Shown piece after piece: positions 1,177 to 30,579 of a stretch of DNA of 31,947 nt (position 1 is its first letter; each line of letters begins with the position of its first letter). The notes beneath the pieces were generated by a model. That model searched no databases and was not told the DNA's origin. It saw only the letters and a program-made list of their open reading frames with translations. The DNA is taken from positions 1-31,947 of the forward strand of contig JAEUJG010000409.1 of NCBI GenBank assembly GCA_016794765.1, given 5' to 3'. Position numbers and translations under genes: made by a program. Source of the stretch: Spirochaetaceae bacterium. Its GTDB lineage: Bacteria; Spirochaetota; Spirochaetia; Treponematales; Rectinemataceae.

Positions 1177-1237
1177 GGACGGTTGGCGGCGATGGTGTCA
1201 CAAAAAGGGCAAAAGGCAAGAAATTATCCATTATTTT

Positions 1238-1266
1238 TAGACAAGGAGGGGAAAGTAACTTAACCT
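1238..1266 (+). promoter_or_regulatory. Putative sigma70 promoter of the MCP gene
   Basis: TAGACA-17 nt-TAACCT in an AT-rich island. GGAGGA RBS at 1290-1295 precedes ATG 1299. Confidence 0.55.
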
Positions 1267-1298
1267 TAACGCAAAGAGTACTATTTCCCGGAGGACCC

Positions 1299-3257
1299 AT
1301 GCGTCTGCGCGCAAAACTATCCCTGTATCTTGGCATTCCCATTGCCCTTGCGCTTCTCGGTCTCACGGTCATCGTCATCCGCCAAAGCGAGTCCAGCCTG
1401 ACGGGGCTGTATATCCAGGCTTCCGAGCAGATCGCCCAGGCGCGGGCGGACGAGGTCTCCCGCTGGCTGGCGGGCAAGTTGGCCGCCGTCCAGCGCGGGG
1501 CCCAGGACCAAACCGTCCGGAGCCAGGACAAGGCCGCGATAAGCCGTTACCTCGAGGAGCGCGCGACCTTCGTCGATCCCGAGGTCGAGATCGAGTGGGT
1601 GGGCGACATCGCCGGCAACTACATGACGACCAAGAAGGCGGTCGGCAACGTCGCCGACCGCGATTACTACAAGGCGATCGTCAAGGAAGGGGCGCCGTAT
1701 TTCGTCGGCAACGCCGTCGTGTCCAAGTCGACCGGCAAGCCGATCATCAACGTCGTCGCCGCCGTGAAGGGGACGGGCGGGGCCACCGCCGGCCTCTACG
1801 CCTACTCGCTCACCCTTGATACCCTCTCGGCCCTCGCCACCAAGGTGAAGATGGGCGCGAACGGCTATGCGGTCCTCGTGGACGGCAACATCCTCCTCAT
1901 CGCCCACCCCAATCCCGCCCTCGCGATGAAGGTGAGCTTCAAGGAACCCTCCAAGCTCGGCTACAAGAACCTGGAGCCGGGCATCGCGAGGATCGAAAAA
2001 CGGGAAGCCGGCAGCCAGGTCTACTTCGACGACAAGGGCGTGGAGAAGCTCTTCGTTTTCGCGCCGATCGCCGGGACGCCGGGCTGGTCCTTCGGCCTCA
2101 TCGTTCCGATGGCGGACATCCGCGCGCCCGCCGTCGCCCTCGGCGGTCTCCTGGCCCTCGTCGCCCTCGCCGTGCTTGTCGGCCTGGTGTTGTTGACCAC
2201 CGTCATCGTCACCCGTCTCGTCCGGCCGATCGCCGGCGTCACCCATGCCCTGTCCGTCCTGGCCTCCGGCAACCTCGACCTCTCTTCCCTCGACAAGGAC
2301 GAGCGGGCCGCGATCCTGGCCCGCAAGGATGAACTCGGCGATTTGAGCCGCAACATGGATCTCCTCTACGACAAGGTCGCCGCCTTCGCCACCGCCGTGA
2401 AGGCCGCCAGCGCCCAGGTCGCCTCCGGTTCGCAGGCGATCAGCTCCACGAGCCAGCAGATGTCCCAGGGGGCGACCGAGCAGGCCTCGAGCGCGGAGGA
2501 GGTGTCCGCGAGCCTCGAGGAGGCCGCCTCGACGACGCATTCGAACGCGGACAACGCGGCCCAGACCGAAGCGATTGCGGTCAAGGCGGCGGCGAGCGCG
2601 GAAAAGGCCGGCGTCGCGGTGCGCGAGGCCATCGGCGCGATGAAGGAGATCGCGAGCCGCATCTCCATCATCGAGGAGATAGCGCGGCAGACCAACCTCC
2701 TGGCCCTCAACGCCGCGATCGAGGCGGCGCGCGCCGGCGAGGCCGGAAAGGGCTTTGCGGTCGTCGCCAGCGAGGTGCGCAAGCTCGCCGAGCGGAGCCA
2801 GAAGGCGGCGGGCGAAATCTCCGCCCTTTCCGTGAAGTCGAGCGCCGTATCGGACCAGGCCGGATCCCTCGTGGACGAGACCATCCCCGCCATCAAGCGG
2901 ACGGCCGACCTCGTGCGGGAGATAGCCGCGGCGAGCGGAGAGCAGAAGCAGGGCATGGACCAGATCAGCGCGGCCTTGAGCCAGCTCGACGGCGTCATCC
3001 AGTCGAACGCCTCGGCGAGCGAGGAGCTCGCCGGCATGTCGGAGGAGTTGGCAGCGCAGGCCGCCACCCTCAAAGAGAGCGCCGCCTACTTCCGCAACGG
3101 CGACGCGGAGGAGGCGGAGCTGCTTCCCGCCGCGGAGGGTCCGCGAGCGCCGCGGCGCCGTCCCCGCCTCGCGGAGCGTGGCGATCGCCGACAGGCCGGC
3201 GGCCCGGACCGGCCCCGCCACCCGGGCCATCGCCCCCCGCGGCGAGCCGCAGGATGA
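1299..3257 (+). CDS. Methyl-accepting chemotaxis protein (TM, Cache-like sensor, TM, HAMP, signalling domain). The real C-terminus appears to be frameshifted and to end at 3276.
   Basis: Hairpin-tip motif [43 protein letters not shown]; two hydrophobic segments; start after GGAGGA. The +1 frame at the 3' end reads ...[18 protein letters not shown]. Confidence 0.95.
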
Positions 3258-26387: not shown

Positions 26388-27608
26388 ATGGACAGGCTTT
26401 TCGCGGCGGAGCGGGAATTCGGGGAGAGGCTCGGCGCCGAGGGCCGCCAAGGGATTCTCCGCGACATAGATCGCGCGAACTGGCTTAGGCTCCGGATCTT
26501 CTACGGCCTCACCATGCTCTTTGAGCTGCTTCTTGTCGCGATGGTCGACCTGCCGGCCCTCGTGGCGGGCCGTTCCGGAACCAGCATGGCCGGACGCGGC
26601 GAACCGCCATCCCTGCCCTTGGCGTACATGGCCTGCCATATGGGTATCTTCCTGGCCTGCGGACTGGGACTATTCTCTGCCTTCCGCGGCCTCGGCGCGA
26701 AGGCAAGTCCTCTTGCGTCCAAACAGAGGCTGTCCGCCGCGCCGACCCTCATGCCAAGCCTGATCGCCATGGTGATCCTCACGATCCTGGGCGTGATCGC
26801 CGCCTTGGACCAGTTGCGAAGCGGAGACATCAGCGCATTCACGATCAACATAGTCGTCGCCGCCCTCCTGATTTACATCCGGCCTCCCCTCGGCTTCCTG
26901 GTCTTTACTCCTGGATTCCTCCTCATGTTCGCCGGGGTGGCGTTGCTGCAGCGCGACGCCGACTTGCGTCTGGCCCATCTCGTCAACGGGGGCATCTTCT
27001 ACAGCGCCGTCCTTCTCCTCTCCGCCTATCTCTATAACAACCACTACAGCCAGCTGGCAAAATCCATCCTGATCGAGGATGCCGCGGCCAAGATCCAGGA
27101 CCTGTCGCTTCATGACGAGCTGACGGGCCTTTCCAACCGCCGGGCTTTTATCGCCATCGTCGAGCGGGAGCTCGCGCGGATGAAGAGGGAAGGCCGCCGC
27201 GCCTATCTGGCCGTCGCCGACATCGACCACTTCAAGACGCTGAACGACCGCTGCGGGCACCCGGCCGGGGACGCCATGTTGCGTCTGGTCGCCGAGACCC
27301 TCGCCGATTCCACGCGGGCGGTCGACGCTGTCGCGCGCTGGGGCGGAGAGGAGTTCATTTTCTTCATCGCGGTCGGCGATGCGGAGATGGCGAGGGAGGT
27401 GCTGGAACGGGCCCGCCGGACCCAGGACGAGGCGAGGCTCCGGCACGAAGGCCAAACGCTCTCGTGCACGCTCAGCTTCGGCTTCGCCGAGCTCAAGGCC
27501 GAAGAGGGCGAGGATGCGTTCTCCAAGGCCTATCGCCGGGCGGATGCGGCGCTCTACGCCGCGAAGGAAGCCGGGCGGAACCGCGTGGTCGGGGCGAGCG
27601 CCGAATAA
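26388..27608 (+). CDS. Membrane-anchored diguanylate cyclase (GGDEF)
   Basis: Several TM segments, then HDELTGLSNRR, DIDHFKTLND, GHPAGD, the I-site RAVD and the active site RWGGEEF. Confidence 0.93.
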   Translation: MDRLFAAEREFGERLGAEGRQGILRDIDRANWLRLRIFYGLTMLFELLLVAMVDLPALVAGRSGTSMAGRGEPPSLPLAYMACHMGIFLACGLGLFSAFRGLGAKASPLASKQRLSAAPTLMPSLIAMVILTILGVIAALDQLRSGDISAFTINIVVAALLIYIRPPLGFLVFTPGFLLMFAGVALLQRDADLRLAHLVNGGIFYSAVLLLSAYLYNNHYSQLAKSILIEDAAAKIQDLSLHDELTGLSNRRAFIAIVERELARMKREGRRAYLAVADIDHFKTLNDRCGHPAGDAMLRLVAETLADSTRAVDAVARWGGEEFIFFIAVGDAEMAREVLERARRTQDEARLRHEGQTLSCTLSFGFAELKAEEGEDAFSKAYRRADAALYAAKEAGRNRVVGASAE

Positions 27609-27693
27609 AAGCCGGGTGTTCCGCTCCGGGCCCGGGAACGCGGAACGGGCCGAGGCTGCGGTCTCCTTCCAGTCCCGGCGCGGCGGGAAGACC

Positions 27694-28092
27694 TCAGAGC
27701 TCGCCGAGGGAAAGGTCGCCGTGGATCTTGTAAAGCCGGCCTTCGCGGTCGACCTCCAGCCGGCGCTCGGGGAAGTGTTCGGGGAGGAAACGGCGGAGGA
27801 GCTCGAGGACCTCGAGTTCGATCGCCTCGCGGGCGGCGGGCGGGATCTCCTCGCCGGCGGCCAGGTCGATCTCGACGAGGTAGCCTCGGCCGAGCCTCGA
27901 GCCGAAGCCGGGGTCGAAGAAGACGCCGAGGTTGAAGAGGCCGTCCGCCTCGGGATTGGCCGTCTCGCCGAGGGCGGGTCGGTTCCGCCGGAGCTTCCAG
28001 GCGCCGCCGTGGCGTTCCTCGAGGATCGTGTCGATCCGGTCGAACATCTCCTTCATCCGCGCGTCCCATTCGATCGTCTTTGGGTGGTACAC
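27694..28092 (-). CDS. Hypothetical protein (132 aa), divergent from asnS
   Basis: GGGGAGAAG RBS before GTG 28092. Reads MYHPKTIEWDARMKEMFDRID...GETANPEADGLFNLG. The ORF-track extension to 28344 runs across the opposite-strand leader and is probably spurious. Confidence 0.75.
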   Translation of the reverse strand: MYHPKTIEWDARMKEMFDRIDTILEERHGGAWKLRRNRPALGETANPEADGLFNLGVFFDPGFGSRLGRGYLVEIDLAAGEEIPPAAREAIELEVLELLRRFLPEHFPERRLEVDREGRLYKIHGDLSLGEL

Positions 28093-28122
28093 CGTCGCTT
28101 CTCCCCGGACAACTATAGCGCA

Positions 28123-28151
28123 TTGACCCGGGAGCCGGAGGGCGCTATCAT
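28123..28151 (+). promoter_or_regulatory. sigma70 promoter of the asnS leader
   Basis: TTGACC-17 nt-TATCAT; ATG 28158 lies 6 nt downstream, at the expected +1. Confidence 0.8.
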
Positions 28152-28157
28152 GAGGAC

Positions 28158-28241
28158 ATGCGCATGATCCATCTCGGCGCCGACAACAAGGGCCTCGACA
28201 ACAACGCCCCCGCCAATGGGGGGCGCCGGGTCGTCGCATAG
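28158..28241 (+). CDS. Asn/Asp-rich leader peptide 1 (27 aa: MRMIHLGADNKGLDNNAPANGGRRVVA)
   Basis: Translated by hand. 4 Asn and 2 Asp codons in codons 9-20. It overlaps the 5' strand of the antiterminator of attenuator 1. Confidence 0.75.
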   Translation: MRMIHLGADNKGLDNNAPANGGRRVVA

Positions 28242-28267
28242 CGCGGGAAAACCGCGTGAAGGAAGAC

Positions 28268-28295
28268 CGGCGCCTCGAGGGGCGCCGTTTTTTTT
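28268..28295 (+). terminator. Attenuator 1 terminator
   Basis: CGGCGCC/GGCGCCG 7-bp stem, 6-nt loop, T8. Its 5' arm (28267-28274) can instead pair with GGCGCCGG at 28222-28229. Confidence 0.88.
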
Positions 28296-28342
28296 CGCTC
28301 CGGGATCGCCGCGCGCGCCGCGGGCCCGGGAAAGGAAGTTCC

Positions 28343-28426
28343 ATGATCCACGCCCGAAGGCCGTATCACCCCTTGTCCTTGTTCGCCGTCAACAATACCA
28401 ACTCCAACAATCCCCGTCCGGCCTAG
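28343..28426 (+). CDS. Asn-rich leader peptide 2 (27 aa: MIHARRPYHPLSLFAVNNTNSNNPRPA)
   Basis: GAAAGGAAG RBS; 5 Asn among codons 17-23. The stop lies inside the 5' strand of antiterminator 2. Confidence 0.85.
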   Translation: MIHARRPYHPLSLFAVNNTNSNNPRPA

Positions 28427-28453
28427 CGTCTTCGAACCGTGATCGAAGCGTCG

Positions 28454-28482
28454 GGCCGGCCATTGCGCCGGCCTTTTTCTTT
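28454..28482 (+). terminator. Attenuator 2 terminator
   Basis: GGCCGGC/GCCGGCC 7-bp stem, 6-nt loop, TTTTTCTTT. Its 5' arm can instead pair with CCGGCCT at 28418-28424. Confidence 0.88.
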
Positions 28483-28530
28483 GCCCGCGCGGCCCCGTCG
28501 GGACCGCCGGAGCGACCCCAGGAGCGAACG

Positions 28531-29814
28531 ATGATCATCCATACGACACGATTGAAAGAGCGGGTCGGCGGCGAGGCGAGCCTCCGCGGTTGGCTCGTCT
28601 CCAAGCAAGCGAGGGGGCAGGTCGCCTTCCTGACCTTGCGCGACGGCGAGGGCACCGCCCAGCTCGTCTGCGAGCGCGCCGCCCTCGGCGACGAGGCCTT
28701 CGAGGCGCTCAAGGCCCTGCCGCTCGAGGCGCCGATCCTCGCGACTGGCCTCGTCCGCCTGCCCGAGGGCCGAGATCGACCGGAGCTCGCGCTCCGCGAA
28801 CTCGAGGCCGGGCCCTCGGCGCCCGACTGGCCGATCGGCCGCAAGGAGCACGGTCCCGATTTCCTCATGGAGCGGCGCCATCTCTGGATCCGCGCGCCCC
28901 GGCAGGCGGCCATCCTCCGGATCCGGAGCAGCCTCGAGTTCGCCTGCGTCGAGTTCCTCCACCGCGAGGGCTTCCACCGCTTCGACGCGCCCCTCGTCAC
29001 GCCGACCGCCTGCGAGGGCACGACGGAGCTCTTCGAGCTCGACTACTTCGGCAAGGCGGCCTACCTCTCGCAGAGCGCCCAGCTCTACGCGGAGGCGGGC
29101 ATCGCGGCCCTGGAGCGCGTGTACAGCCTGGGCCCCTGCTTCCGCGCGGAGAAGTCCGTGACGCGGCGCCACCTCACCGAGTTCTGGGGCGTGGAGCCCG
29201 AGATGGCCCATGTCGACGCGGTGGGCAACATGGCCTTCCAGGAGCGCTTCATCCGCGCCGTCCTCCGGAAGGTCGCGGAGGAGCGGGAGGGGGACCTCGC
29301 CTTCCTCGGGCGCGATCCCGAGAGCCTCGTCTTCGGTCCCGAGCCCTTTCCTGTCCTCCTCTACGACGAGGTTCTCGAGCGCCTGTCGCGCCAGGGCCGC
29401 GAGGTACCCTGGGGCGAGGATCTTTCCGTCGAGGACGAGGAGGCCCTGGCCGCGGGCTTCGCGACGCCCTTCTTCGTCTACAAGTATCCGGTGAAGTGCC
29501 GCGCCTTCTACATCGAGCCCGACCCCGCGGACCCGCGCCTGGCCCTCTCGAGCGACTGCCTGGCGCCCGGCCTCGGCGAGATCATCACGGGCGGCCAGCG
29601 GGCGAGCGACCACGACTTCCTGAAATCGCGCATCGTCGAGCACGGCCTCTCGCTCGATGACTTCGCCTGGTACCTCGACCTGCGGCGCTACGGCTCCGTG
29701 ACGCACTCGGGCTTCGGCATGGGGATCGAGCGCATGCTCCGCTTTGTCTGCGGCCTCCGCCACATCAGGGAGGCGATCCCCTTCGCGCGCACGCCCCAGC
29801 GCATCGCGCCCTGA
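28531..29814 (+). CDS. asnS: Asparagine-tRNA ligase (Bacillus/Thermus/archaeal-like subtype)
   Basis: OB-fold N-terminus (LRGW, FLTLRDG), RHLWIR, YLSQSAQLY, motif 2 FRAEKSVTRRHLTEFW and motif 3 HSGFGMGIER. AGGAG RBS before ATG 28531. Confidence 0.93.
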   Translation: MIIHTTRLKERVGGEASLRGWLVSKQARGQVAFLTLRDGEGTAQLVCERAALGDEAFEALKALPLEAPILATGLVRLPEGRDRPELALRELEAGPSAPDWPIGRKEHGPDFLMERRHLWIRAPRQAAILRIRSSLEFACVEFLHREGFHRFDAPLVTPTACEGTTELFELDYFGKAAYLSQSAQLYAEAGIAALERVYSLGPCFRAEKSVTRRHLTEFWGVEPEMAHVDAVGNMAFQERFIRAVLRKVAEEREGDLAFLGRDPESLVFGPEPFPVLLYDEVLERLSRQGREVPWGEDLSVEDEEALAAGFATPFFVYKYPVKCRAFYIEPDPADPRLALSSDCLAPGLGEIITGGQRASDHDFLKSRIVEHGLSLDDFAWYLDLRRYGSVTHSGFGMGIERMLRFVCGLRHIREAIPFARTPQRIAP

Positions 29815-29850
29815 AGCGGGGCGGCGCGGTACGGCCCAGGCGCGGGATCC

Positions 29851-30579
29851 TCAGCGCCGGGTCCTGGCCCGGATGGCCAGGACGCCGGCGCCGAGGGCCA
29901 GGACCGCGAAAGCCCAGGTCTGGAGGAGCGGCGCCGCGGCGGCGGCCAGGTCCGCGCCCCGAAAGAGAAGCCGCGCCGCTTCCACCGCGGCGGCGAAGGG
30001 GAGGACCTTACCGATCGTCGCGAAAAAGCCTCCGGCGGCCGCCGGATCGAAGTAAAGCCCCCCGAAGACGCCGACCGCCGTGACGAGGGCGGAGCCCAAG
30101 CCGGCGATCTGGTTTTCCGTGAAAATGGCGCCCAGGCAGAGGCCGAGGCCGACAAAGCCGAGGGCGGCCGGTAGGAGCGCAACCGCGGCGACCGCAGCCC
30201 CGGCCCCCAGGGGCGCTCCGAAGGCCGCGCCGACCGCGTAGCAGGTCAGGGCCTGGAGGGCCGCGACCGGGAGGAAGGGCAGGGCATAGGCCAGGGCGAA
30301 GTCCCGCGGCTCGAGGGGGGTCGCCAGGAGGCGGCCGAAGAGGCCGCCCGAGCGGTCCCGCGCGAGGAGCATCGCCGAGAACATGACGAGCATCGCGAAG
30401 CTGAAGACGGCGTAGGCGGGCGTCATGAGTTCGATGCGGAACTGTGGGGAGGGGACGTTTTTCCCGAGCGCCGCGAAAAGCGCTAGGAGGGCGCAGGGCA
30501 TCGCCGCGCCGAGCCCCGCGCTCAAGGGGTCCCTCAGGACCTCCGCGAGGTTCCGCCCCGCGAGCGACATCCACCTCAT
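29851..30579 (-). CDS. ABC-2 type exporter permease
   Basis: Six hydrophobic segments, RLLATPL and GLYFD...LPF..AVEAAR patterns. ATGA overlap with the ATPase gene. Confidence 0.88.
   Translation of the reverse strand: MRWMSLAGRNLAEVLRDPLSAGLGAAMPCALLALFAALGKNVPSPQFRIELMTPAYAVFSFAMLVMFSAMLLARDRSGGLFGRLLATPLEPRDFALAYALPFLPVAALQALTCYAVGAAFGAPLGAGAAVAAVALLPAALGFVGLGLCLGAIFTENQIAGLGSALVTAVGVFGGLYFDPAAAGGFFATIGKVLPFAAAVEAARLLFRGADLAAAAAPLLQTWAFAVLALGAGVLAIRARTRR

Follow-up and report, generated by a model that had tools for sequence, protein, structure and literature searches.

A probable tandem attenuator made of two asparagine-rich leader reading frames upstream of an auxiliary asparagine–tRNA ligase gene in a spirochaete

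We analyzed the region upstream of asnS2, a gene for an asparagine–tRNA ligase in a spirochaete known from a metagenome-assembled genome of 3.7 Mb in 651 contigs, which is 90% complete and has 68.6% G+C. Coordinates are positions in the whole stretch of DNA that was analyzed, 31,947 nt of contig JAEUJG010000409.1 (assembly GCA_016794765.1), called the window here. Between 28123 and 28530, directly before asnS2, lie a promoter-like site and a pair of small open reading frames (ORFs) rich in asparagine (Asn) codons, each followed by an intrinsic terminator. The initial annotation had read this region as a tandem Asn-sensing leader-peptide attenuator controlling asnS. The promoter, the two Asn-rich upstream ORFs (uORFs) of 27 amino acids (aa), the two terminators, the Shine-Dalgarno (SD) site of the second uORF, and asnS with its own SD site were all found where it had placed them. 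The first ORF with its terminator is called unit A and the second unit B. The features are as follows:

28123-28151 (+): promoter-like site; -35 box TTGACC at 28123-28128, 17-nt spacer, -10 box TATCAT at 28146-28151
28158-28241 (+): leader ORF 1 (unit A); 27 codons, 27 aa, MRMIHLGADNKGLDNNAPANGGRRVVA, four Asn, stop codon at 28239
28205-28225 (+): segment 1:2 hairpin of unit A; 28205-28211 pairs with 28219-28225, -16.5 kcal/mol
28205-28211 (+): segment 1 of unit A
28219-28230 (+): segment 2 of unit A; 28220-28229 reads GGGGCGCCGG
28220-28276 (+): antiterminator of unit A; 28220-28229 pairs with 28267-28276
28242-28256 (+): small hairpin past the unit A stop codon, enclosed by the antiterminator
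28267-28276 (+): segment 3 of unit A, the 5' arm of the terminator
28268-28295 (+): intrinsic terminator 1; G+C-rich stem 28268-28287, T8 at 28288-28295
28280-28287 (+): segment 4 of unit A
28332-28338 (+): SD-like AAGGAAG of leader ORF 2
28343-28426 (+): leader ORF 2 (unit B); 27 codons, 27 aa, MIHARRPYHPLSLFAVNNTNSNNPRPA, five Asn, C-terminus NNTNSNNPRPA followed by the stop codon
28418-28459 (+): antiterminator of unit B; a long hairpin, -25.4 kcal/mol
28453-28483 (+): intrinsic terminator 2; stem 28453-28474 and then a T-rich tract, TTTTCTTT, -17.0 kcal/mol
28520-28524 (+): SD site AGGAG of asnS2
28531-29814 (+): asnS2; asparagine–tRNA ligase, 427 aa

The promoter-like site is of the sigma-70 type and matches the consensus at 10 of 12 positions; it was the only one across the 2.4 kb from 27600 to 30000, where shuffled sequences predict 0.1. 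Leader ORF 1 begins 6 nt past the -10 box and has a further in-frame ATG at 28164. With this spacing, transcription is expected to start at the ATG or right beside it, so the ORF is probably read from a leaderless transcript. Its Asn codons are at 28185, 28200, 28203, and 28215. The 1:2 hairpin begins within the last invariant Asn codon, and in the antiterminator (-36.2 kcal/mol) all 10 arm columns pair with segment 2. Unit A has the classical four-segment layout, with the pairings 1:2, 2:3, and 3:4.

The Asn codons of leader ORF 2 are at 28391, 28394, 28400, 28406, and 28409, and its stop codon is at 28424. In the unit B antiterminator, the 5' strand takes in the final pair of sense codons (CCG GCC), the stop codon, and roughly 15 bases beyond it, and the 3' strand has the terminator's 5' arm, GGGCCGG, at its end. 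Unit B is a simpler three-segment design with no need for a segment 1. In both uORFs, the 3' part is complementary to the 5' arm of the terminator that comes next. Since a leaderless four-segment unit is followed by a three-segment one, the tandem pair is not a simple duplication.

The asnS2 product scored 438.9 bits with NF003037 (cut-off 414) and 375.1 bits with TIGR00457 (cut-off 342.6), and contains an OB-fold anticodon-binding domain (PF01336) and a class II core (PF00152). As had been claimed, the four and five Asn codons of the uORFs match the amino acid of the downstream synthetase.

Orthologs of asnS2, with 66-89% protein identity, were searched for in species-representative genomes and metagenome contigs. 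Sixteen loci had enough upstream DNA, 15 of them found by protein similarity (the window included) and one, L143 in genome G082, by an RNA model. All 16 had unit A, a short Asn-rich ORF with an intrinsic terminator behind it. All 16 also had its promoter, with a -35 box TTGAC(N), a spacer of 17-18 nt, and a -10 box, and the ATG lay 6-7 nt past the -10 box (9 nt in one locus). The unit A peptides have 22-29 residues, 17% of which are Asn, and have in common only the motifs NNxLxNN or LNNNG, the rest being variable. An adjacent AAY-AAY pair (Y being C or T; 28200-28205 in the window) coded for Asn in 30 of 30 instances in the 15 aligned loci. Only its third bases varied, with an AAT/AAC ratio of 10/5 in the first codon and 4/11 in the second.

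Unit B occurred between unit A and asnS2 in eight loci (the window, L036/L117, L038, L041, L116, L120, L122, and L135), and in the seven others than the window GGAGGA or AAAGGA motifs precede the ORF as an SD site. All eight kept the C-terminus NN(x)NSNN-xx-PA-stop, with an N-terminal part that differs in length and sequence, and the terminator has the form GGCCGGC...GCCGGCC. The tandem layout proposed initially thus holds for the window, and tandem and single states both exist among the orthologs. In a protein tree, the tandem and single loci were interspersed and did not form separate groups; unit B may be ancestral with several losses, or may have been gained more than once. The Asn leader was absent from the six examined homologs with about 50% identity (L042-L047, from Acidobacteriota, Chloroflexota, Eisenbacteria, and others).

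An RNA switch of the T-box type, binding tRNA or protein, would have the AAC/AAU triplets recognized by the GUU anticodon of uncharged tRNA-Asn, or by a protein, and leave the short frames untranslated. The AAY repeats are indeed complementary to this anticodon, and T-boxes control many aminoacyl-tRNA synthetase (aaRS) genes in other phyla. A cmscan search of 27600-29000 against Rfam, with E-values up to 10, gave only chance-level matches to unrelated families, with no T-box and none of the Trp, His, Thr, or Leu leaders. The conserved features also argue against such a switch: in 16 of 16 loci the ATG keeps a fixed spacing of 6-7 nt (9 nt in one locus) to the -10 box, every short frame runs open from its ATG to a stop codon, and in most of the 35 units collected in the bacterial family (see below) the stop codon lies 8-19 nt past the antiterminator strand. 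Moreover, unit B has an SD site, and the third-position changes preserve the amino acid. We consider this explanation very unlikely.

In the long ORFs of this genome, about 1% of codons are for Asn. At this measured frequency, the binomial probabilities of at least four and at least five Asn in 27 codons are 2e-4 and 9e-6; with a generous 2.5% Asn, they are 4e-3 and 5e-4. A genome-wide scan for a short ORF plus terminator, with at least four of one residue within eight, returned only two cases for Asn, namely the second uORF of the window and the leader of an AsnA-like gene in contig C612. The AAC/AAT clusters are therefore unusual in this GC-rich DNA, as the initial annotation had remarked. 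G+C-rich DNA is full of open frames and hairpins, and two unrelated terminators might stand beside two spurious short frames by chance. The comparative data already contradict such an arrangement, which was kept in 16 loci at 66-89% protein identity with a conserved promoter and covarying helices, and the genome-wide scan was specific; we give it practically no weight. This conservation across orthologous loci is a stronger argument than the Asn statistics.

The pairing of the uORFs with their terminators was examined in the same loci. In unit A, a segment inside the ORF, GGG(T/C)GCCG, copies the 3' arm of the terminator and can pair with the 5' arm CGGC(A/G)CC. In a MAFFT alignment of 15 loci, 95.9% of the terminator cells were paired, the central pair being AU in nine loci and GC in six. 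For the antiterminator the value was 83.7%, with a central pair UA in seven and CG in five. Controls in which the antiterminator partners were slid by 1-3 columns had 38-50% paired cells, and the terminator and antiterminator controls together had 38-60%. Of the three exceptions at the central antiterminator pair, L040 was a one-column misalignment, and L039 and L121 were real mismatches. The 1:2 hairpin was counted from per-sequence folds instead of MAFFT columns, since loop lengths vary, and in all 15 unit A copies it starts 0-3 nt past the invariant Asn pair. With segment 1 masked and the 3' arm still absent, segment 2 paired with 7-10 of the 10 arm columns in the minimum-energy folds of all 15.

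In unit B, the antiterminator that spans the stop codon formed in eight of eight copies (-17.7 to -25.4 kcal/mol) and usually exceeded the terminator in stability; the inner helix varies in sequence among loci and retains the pairing. The 35 family units were also assessed with per-sequence folds, and the model-based alignment was not used because the longer terminators of the AsnA type were in inconsistent register. In every one of the 35, a partner for the 5' arm was found within the 3' end of the uORF or beside its stop codon, mostly between -19 and -8 relative to the stop codon, where a terminating ribosome would cover it. The proposal that the pairing of the uORF 3' part and the terminator are mutually exclusive was thus borne out in 15/15 copies of unit A, 8/8 of unit B, and 35/35 family units. 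The upstream regions of orthologous asnS genes, whose comparison the initial annotation had recommended, contain both conserved Asn-rich uORFs and covarying terminator and antiterminator helices.

To find related leaders, we built a covariance model (R1) from unit A and ran it over 69 genomes of the same family, Rectinemataceae, and 150 genomes drawn from elsewhere in the phylum. R1 had matches in 32 of the 69 family genomes. Its lone match among the other 150 was a false positive that consisted of a gene end and a terminator. The weaker matches were likewise leaderless Asn-rich ORFs with terminators, such as MKRNVFNANSNLLNNNNGTAAAVPELCA, and stood before other genes.

In about 15 genomes, the Asn leader precedes a gene for an AsnA-like protein of 412-427 residues (419 in several). 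The only families matched by these proteins were the archaeal-type "asparagine synthetase A" models, with 111-121 bits (cut-off 309), a type derived from asparaginyl-tRNA synthetase (AsnRS). In two genomes of one genus, an Asn leader stands before an operon of gatC-like, gatA, gatB, and aspartate–tRNA(Asn) ligase genes: in L173 (G007:C38:24500-30800, minus strand), and also in G067 (L152), the leader MMFLSIEFSPTNSNNNNRPSAAAGPVQRA with a terminator precedes this gatCAB-aspS(Asn) operon. GatCAB and aspartate–tRNA(Asn) ligase constitute the tRNA-dependent route to Asn-tRNA(Asn).

The genome of the window itself has a second tandem pair of Asn leaders in contig C612 (L137, about 1230-1680, minus strand), upstream of an AsnA-like gene. 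The first is leaderless, MAMTIGRLASSNRNNRNPPSAAGPASRA, and is followed by a terminator; the second is an SD-driven uORF with DPDNNN and its own terminator. The downstream protein has a divergent AsnRS core and matches only the "asparagine synthetase A" models, with 111.8 bits (cut-off 309). No asnB above the cut-off and no gatB were found in this genome, which is 90% complete.

That one kind of leader stands before three routes of Asn-tRNA(Asn) supply would be difficult to account for if the Asn codons did not act as the sensor. We think it probable that this family runs an asparagine regulon wholly on Asn-codon leader peptides, with at least three unit designs, placed singly or as tandems that read the same signal, the tandem being a two-stage, steeper switch. 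The designs would probably be the leaderless four-segment unit, the SD-driven three-segment unit, and a variant before AsnA-like genes. The routes served would likewise probably be a spare AsnRS, an asparagine synthetase derived from AsnRS, and GatCAB together with a non-discriminating AspRS.

It is also conceivable that the short ORFs produce functional peptides, for example precursors or substrates of AsnRS-like enzymes, and that the hairpins are ordinary terminators or stabilizers. The conserved motifs NNxLxNN and NNNSNN..PA, and the class II synthetase-like nature of the enzymes encoded downstream, would agree with this. Outside the Asn codons, however, conservation follows RNA pairing rather than the sequence of the peptide, segment 2 copies the 3' arm of the terminator, and the N-terminal parts are free in length and sequence. 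A terminator with a competing helix between peptide gene and enzyme gene is the signature of attenuation, and gatCAB is preceded by such leaders too, which makes functional peptides a highly improbable account.

A separate observation concerns the AsnA-like genes. In L144, L145, L147, L150, L153-L157, and L163, a second conserved uORF lies between the leader terminator and the AsnA-like gene. It has a strong AGGAGG..GGAGG ribosome-binding site and reads MIFSYGILMGNA.., MKHSGRILMGNA.., MLHGGHILAGNG.., or MTERICVPSGNG... Near codon 11 it carries one invariant G-N-[AG], and no terminator is obvious downstream of it. This uORF may act as an arrest peptide or sense Asn at the level of translation.

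In the trp and his attenuators, stalling of the ribosome at hungry codons leads to read-through, and a finished leader peptide leads to termination; the footprint sizes of ribosomes are established as well. The ribosome geometry of units A and B would follow from this model. We estimate at about 85% the probability that two serial ribosome-mediated transcription attenuators tuned to Asn gate asnS2. Most likely, asnS2 would be switched on only when charged Asn tRNA runs low. The leader-peptide attenuation that had been suggested for the window is supported by the presence of unit A in 16/16 loci and unit B in eight, by the synonymous changes in Asn codons, and by the covarying helices. From the layout we infer the response to asparagine, the translation of the ORFs, and transcript 3' ends at the U-tracts.

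In unit A, transcription would begin at the ATG of leader ORF 1 or immediately beside it. With ample Asn-tRNA(Asn), the ribosome at the stop codon (28239) would cover segment 2 (28219-28230), and terminator 1 (28268-28295) would form. When Asn-tRNA(Asn) is low, the ribosome would stall on AAC-AAC (28200-28205) and cover segment 1 (28205-28211); the freed segment 2 would pair with the 5' arm of the terminator (28267-28276), and the polymerase would read through. In unit B, the ribosome would load at the unit's own SD site. On reaching the stop codon at 28424, it would melt the antiterminator (28418-28459) and allow terminator 2 to form. A stall on the first Asn codons (28391-28402, 24-33 nt before the stop) would keep the hairpin and permit read-through into asnS2. 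The two units in series would multiply their read-through probabilities.

Several points weigh against serial Asn-tuned attenuation. In unit A, the Asn codons at 28185 and 28215 are badly placed for antitermination, and the AAC-AAC pair alone is ideal. In unit B, a ribosome halted at the final two Asn codons would sit over CCGGCC and promote termination. Left untranslated, unit B is predicted to read through by default, its antiterminator being stabler than its terminator, so its function would depend on efficient ribosome loading. Coupling of transcription and translation in these spirochaetes is assumed. The covariation leans mainly on one three-way change (G-C vs. A-U), which may go back to few evolutionary events, and two of the 15 loci, L039 and L121, are mismatched at the central antiterminator position. 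Finally, the sole metatranscriptome with this DNA has one exact contig of 200 nt, at 28804-29003 inside asnS2, which leaves the leader uncovered.

Alternatively, the attenuators could, like those of the pyrBI type, sense the general status of translation and coupling; ribosomes slowed for any reason would then cause read-through, with no special meaning for the Asn codons. In favor of this, unit B by its logic would answer any stall or failed ribosome loading, and just two Asn codons of the window's unit A stand at optimal positions. Against this, the Asn codons are invariant and undergo only synonymous changes, Asn makes up 17% of leader residues vs. about 1% of genome codons, and the leaders precede three unrelated gene sets whose sole common trait is the supply of Asn-tRNA(Asn). 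We regard a general sensor as unlikely.

The gene behind the attenuators is an asparagine–tRNA ligase gene, as annotated, but it is not the only asnS of the genome. A canonical asnS (617.5 bits with TIGR00457) lies in contig C650, which is 2.9 kb long (L001, 44-1396, minus strand), and no Asn-rich uORF or terminator was found in its upstream region. Among 60 relatives, nearly all hold the canonical AsnRS type only, which is about 37% identical to the asnS2 protein. Orthologs of asnS2 were found in just two of the 60 (85% and 73% identity), and both also retain the canonical copy. The spirochaete AsnRS2 proteins form one clade in the protein tree (100/99 support), and their closest neighbors are homologs from other phyla. 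Since a canonical asnS free of the leader switch is present in the same genome, asnS2 is an auxiliary AsnRS paralog, and its distribution is patchy. It might serve as a back-up with high affinity or as a copy that resists inhibitors.

Control of synthetase genes by leader peptides has precedents. In Escherichia coli, a leader peptide attenuator, pheM, controls the aaRS operon pheST. As here, a short leader ORF rich in cognate codons and a choice between terminator and antiterminator govern the synthetase of the same amino acid; unlike here, the amino acid is Phe, the unit is single, its leader bears an SD site, and the target is the only PheRS, whereas the spirochaete system has Asn codons, a spare paralog, and a leaderless unit A. 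In Streptomyces coelicolor, trpRS1, an auxiliary antibiotic-resistant TrpRS gene, is reportedly under ribosome-mediated transcriptional attenuation (Vecchione and Sello, J Bacteriol 2010, as cited in PMC4787780). It resembles asnS2 as an auxiliary synthetase copy under a leader-peptide attenuator that reads the charging of the cognate tRNA, and differs in its Trp codons and, as far as known, its single attenuator, against Asn codons and two units here. Functionally, pheM-pheST and S. coelicolor trpRS1 are the nearest relatives of the asnS2 leader on this comparison.

In structure, unit A resembles trpL, with the full set of 1:2, 2:3, and 3:4 pairings, regulatory codons right before segment 1, and a stop codon just past segment 2. 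It has no sequence or Rfam kinship with trpL, and it differs in its Asn codons, its leaderless start, and its target, a synthetase instead of a biosynthetic operon. Two termination switches that read the same signal, as in tandem T-boxes and riboswitches, should lower basal expression and make the response steeper. In those, the RNA alone senses tRNA or metabolites, whereas translating ribosomes would do so here.

Two short ORFs also occur in the mgtCBR leader of Salmonella, where each sways the choice of stem-loop and downstream transcription; they are described as reading different signals (Lee & Groisman, 2012; PMC3641672), in contrast to the spirochaete pair, in which both would read Asn and each has its own intrinsic terminator. 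In mycobacteria, leaderless polycysteine short ORFs are Cys-responsive attenuators, according to a preprint (bioRxiv 10.1101/834739). Like unit A, these are sensing ORFs at the 5' end of the transcript, rich in codons for the amino acid supplied by the operon, and they differ in amino acid and phylum.

The leaders upstream of asnS2 are of the textbook attenuation kind. Less usual are the leaderless first unit, the two structurally different units that read the same signal in series, and the auxiliary synthetase as target. Our literature searches for leader peptides, attenuators, or uORFs linked to asnS or asparagine found no description of an Asn leader; a mention is possible in Lopatovskaya et al. 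2010, reportedly on attenuation of aaRS operons, or in Vecchione and Sello 2010, said to deal with trpRS1. Neither asnS nor asparagine is mentioned by Naville and Gautheret (2010). The initial annotation had likewise named no characterized Asn-codon attenuator of asnS and no tandem leader-peptide pair of this kind, and the Rfam and literature searches turned up no earlier description.

If the regulon proposed for the family is real, asparagine joins the amino acids sensed by classical attenuation, a case that appears to be undescribed in the literature. The present case is clean and richly conserved. It ties attenuation to a spare synthetase and, in sister genomes, to two other routes to Asn-tRNA(Asn), and it gives a testable picture of asparagine management in uncultured spirochaetes of sludge and sediment. 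Two unlike units in series with the same proposed signal are a natural system for asking whether serial ribosome-dependent attenuators sharpen a response in the way of tandem riboswitches. Annotators gain a covariance model and a rule, an Asn-dense short ORF plus a terminator, for spotting such leaders. The question of the role of the second AsnRS is now framed by its regulation.

The gene upstream of the leader and asnS2 is divergent and the gene downstream is convergent. With a convergent gene downstream, asnS2 is monocistronic and the leader serves it alone; with a divergent gene upstream, the leader terminators end no other transcript. Beside the promoter, at 27694-28092 on the minus strand, is a divergent ORF of 132 residues that had no match in Pfam or NCBIfam, and its gene seems also to adjoin asnS2 in the metagenome locus L116.

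Elsewhere in the genome, on the minus strand of contig C643 (1001-1072), a short ORF, MPLEYNYRSKSFAFHFFHASVES, is followed by a terminator-like hairpin and may be a leader of the Phe/His type.

The two leader ORFs and asnS2 have similar opening words: ATGCGCATGATCCAT in leader ORF 1 (28158-28172), ATGATCCAC in leader ORF 2 (28343-28351), and ATGATCATCCAT in asnS2 (28531-28542), with the peptide starts M(RM)IH, MIH, and MIIH. These may reflect a shared initiation context or a past duplication, and several orthologous unit A ORFs likewise open with ATGATCC.

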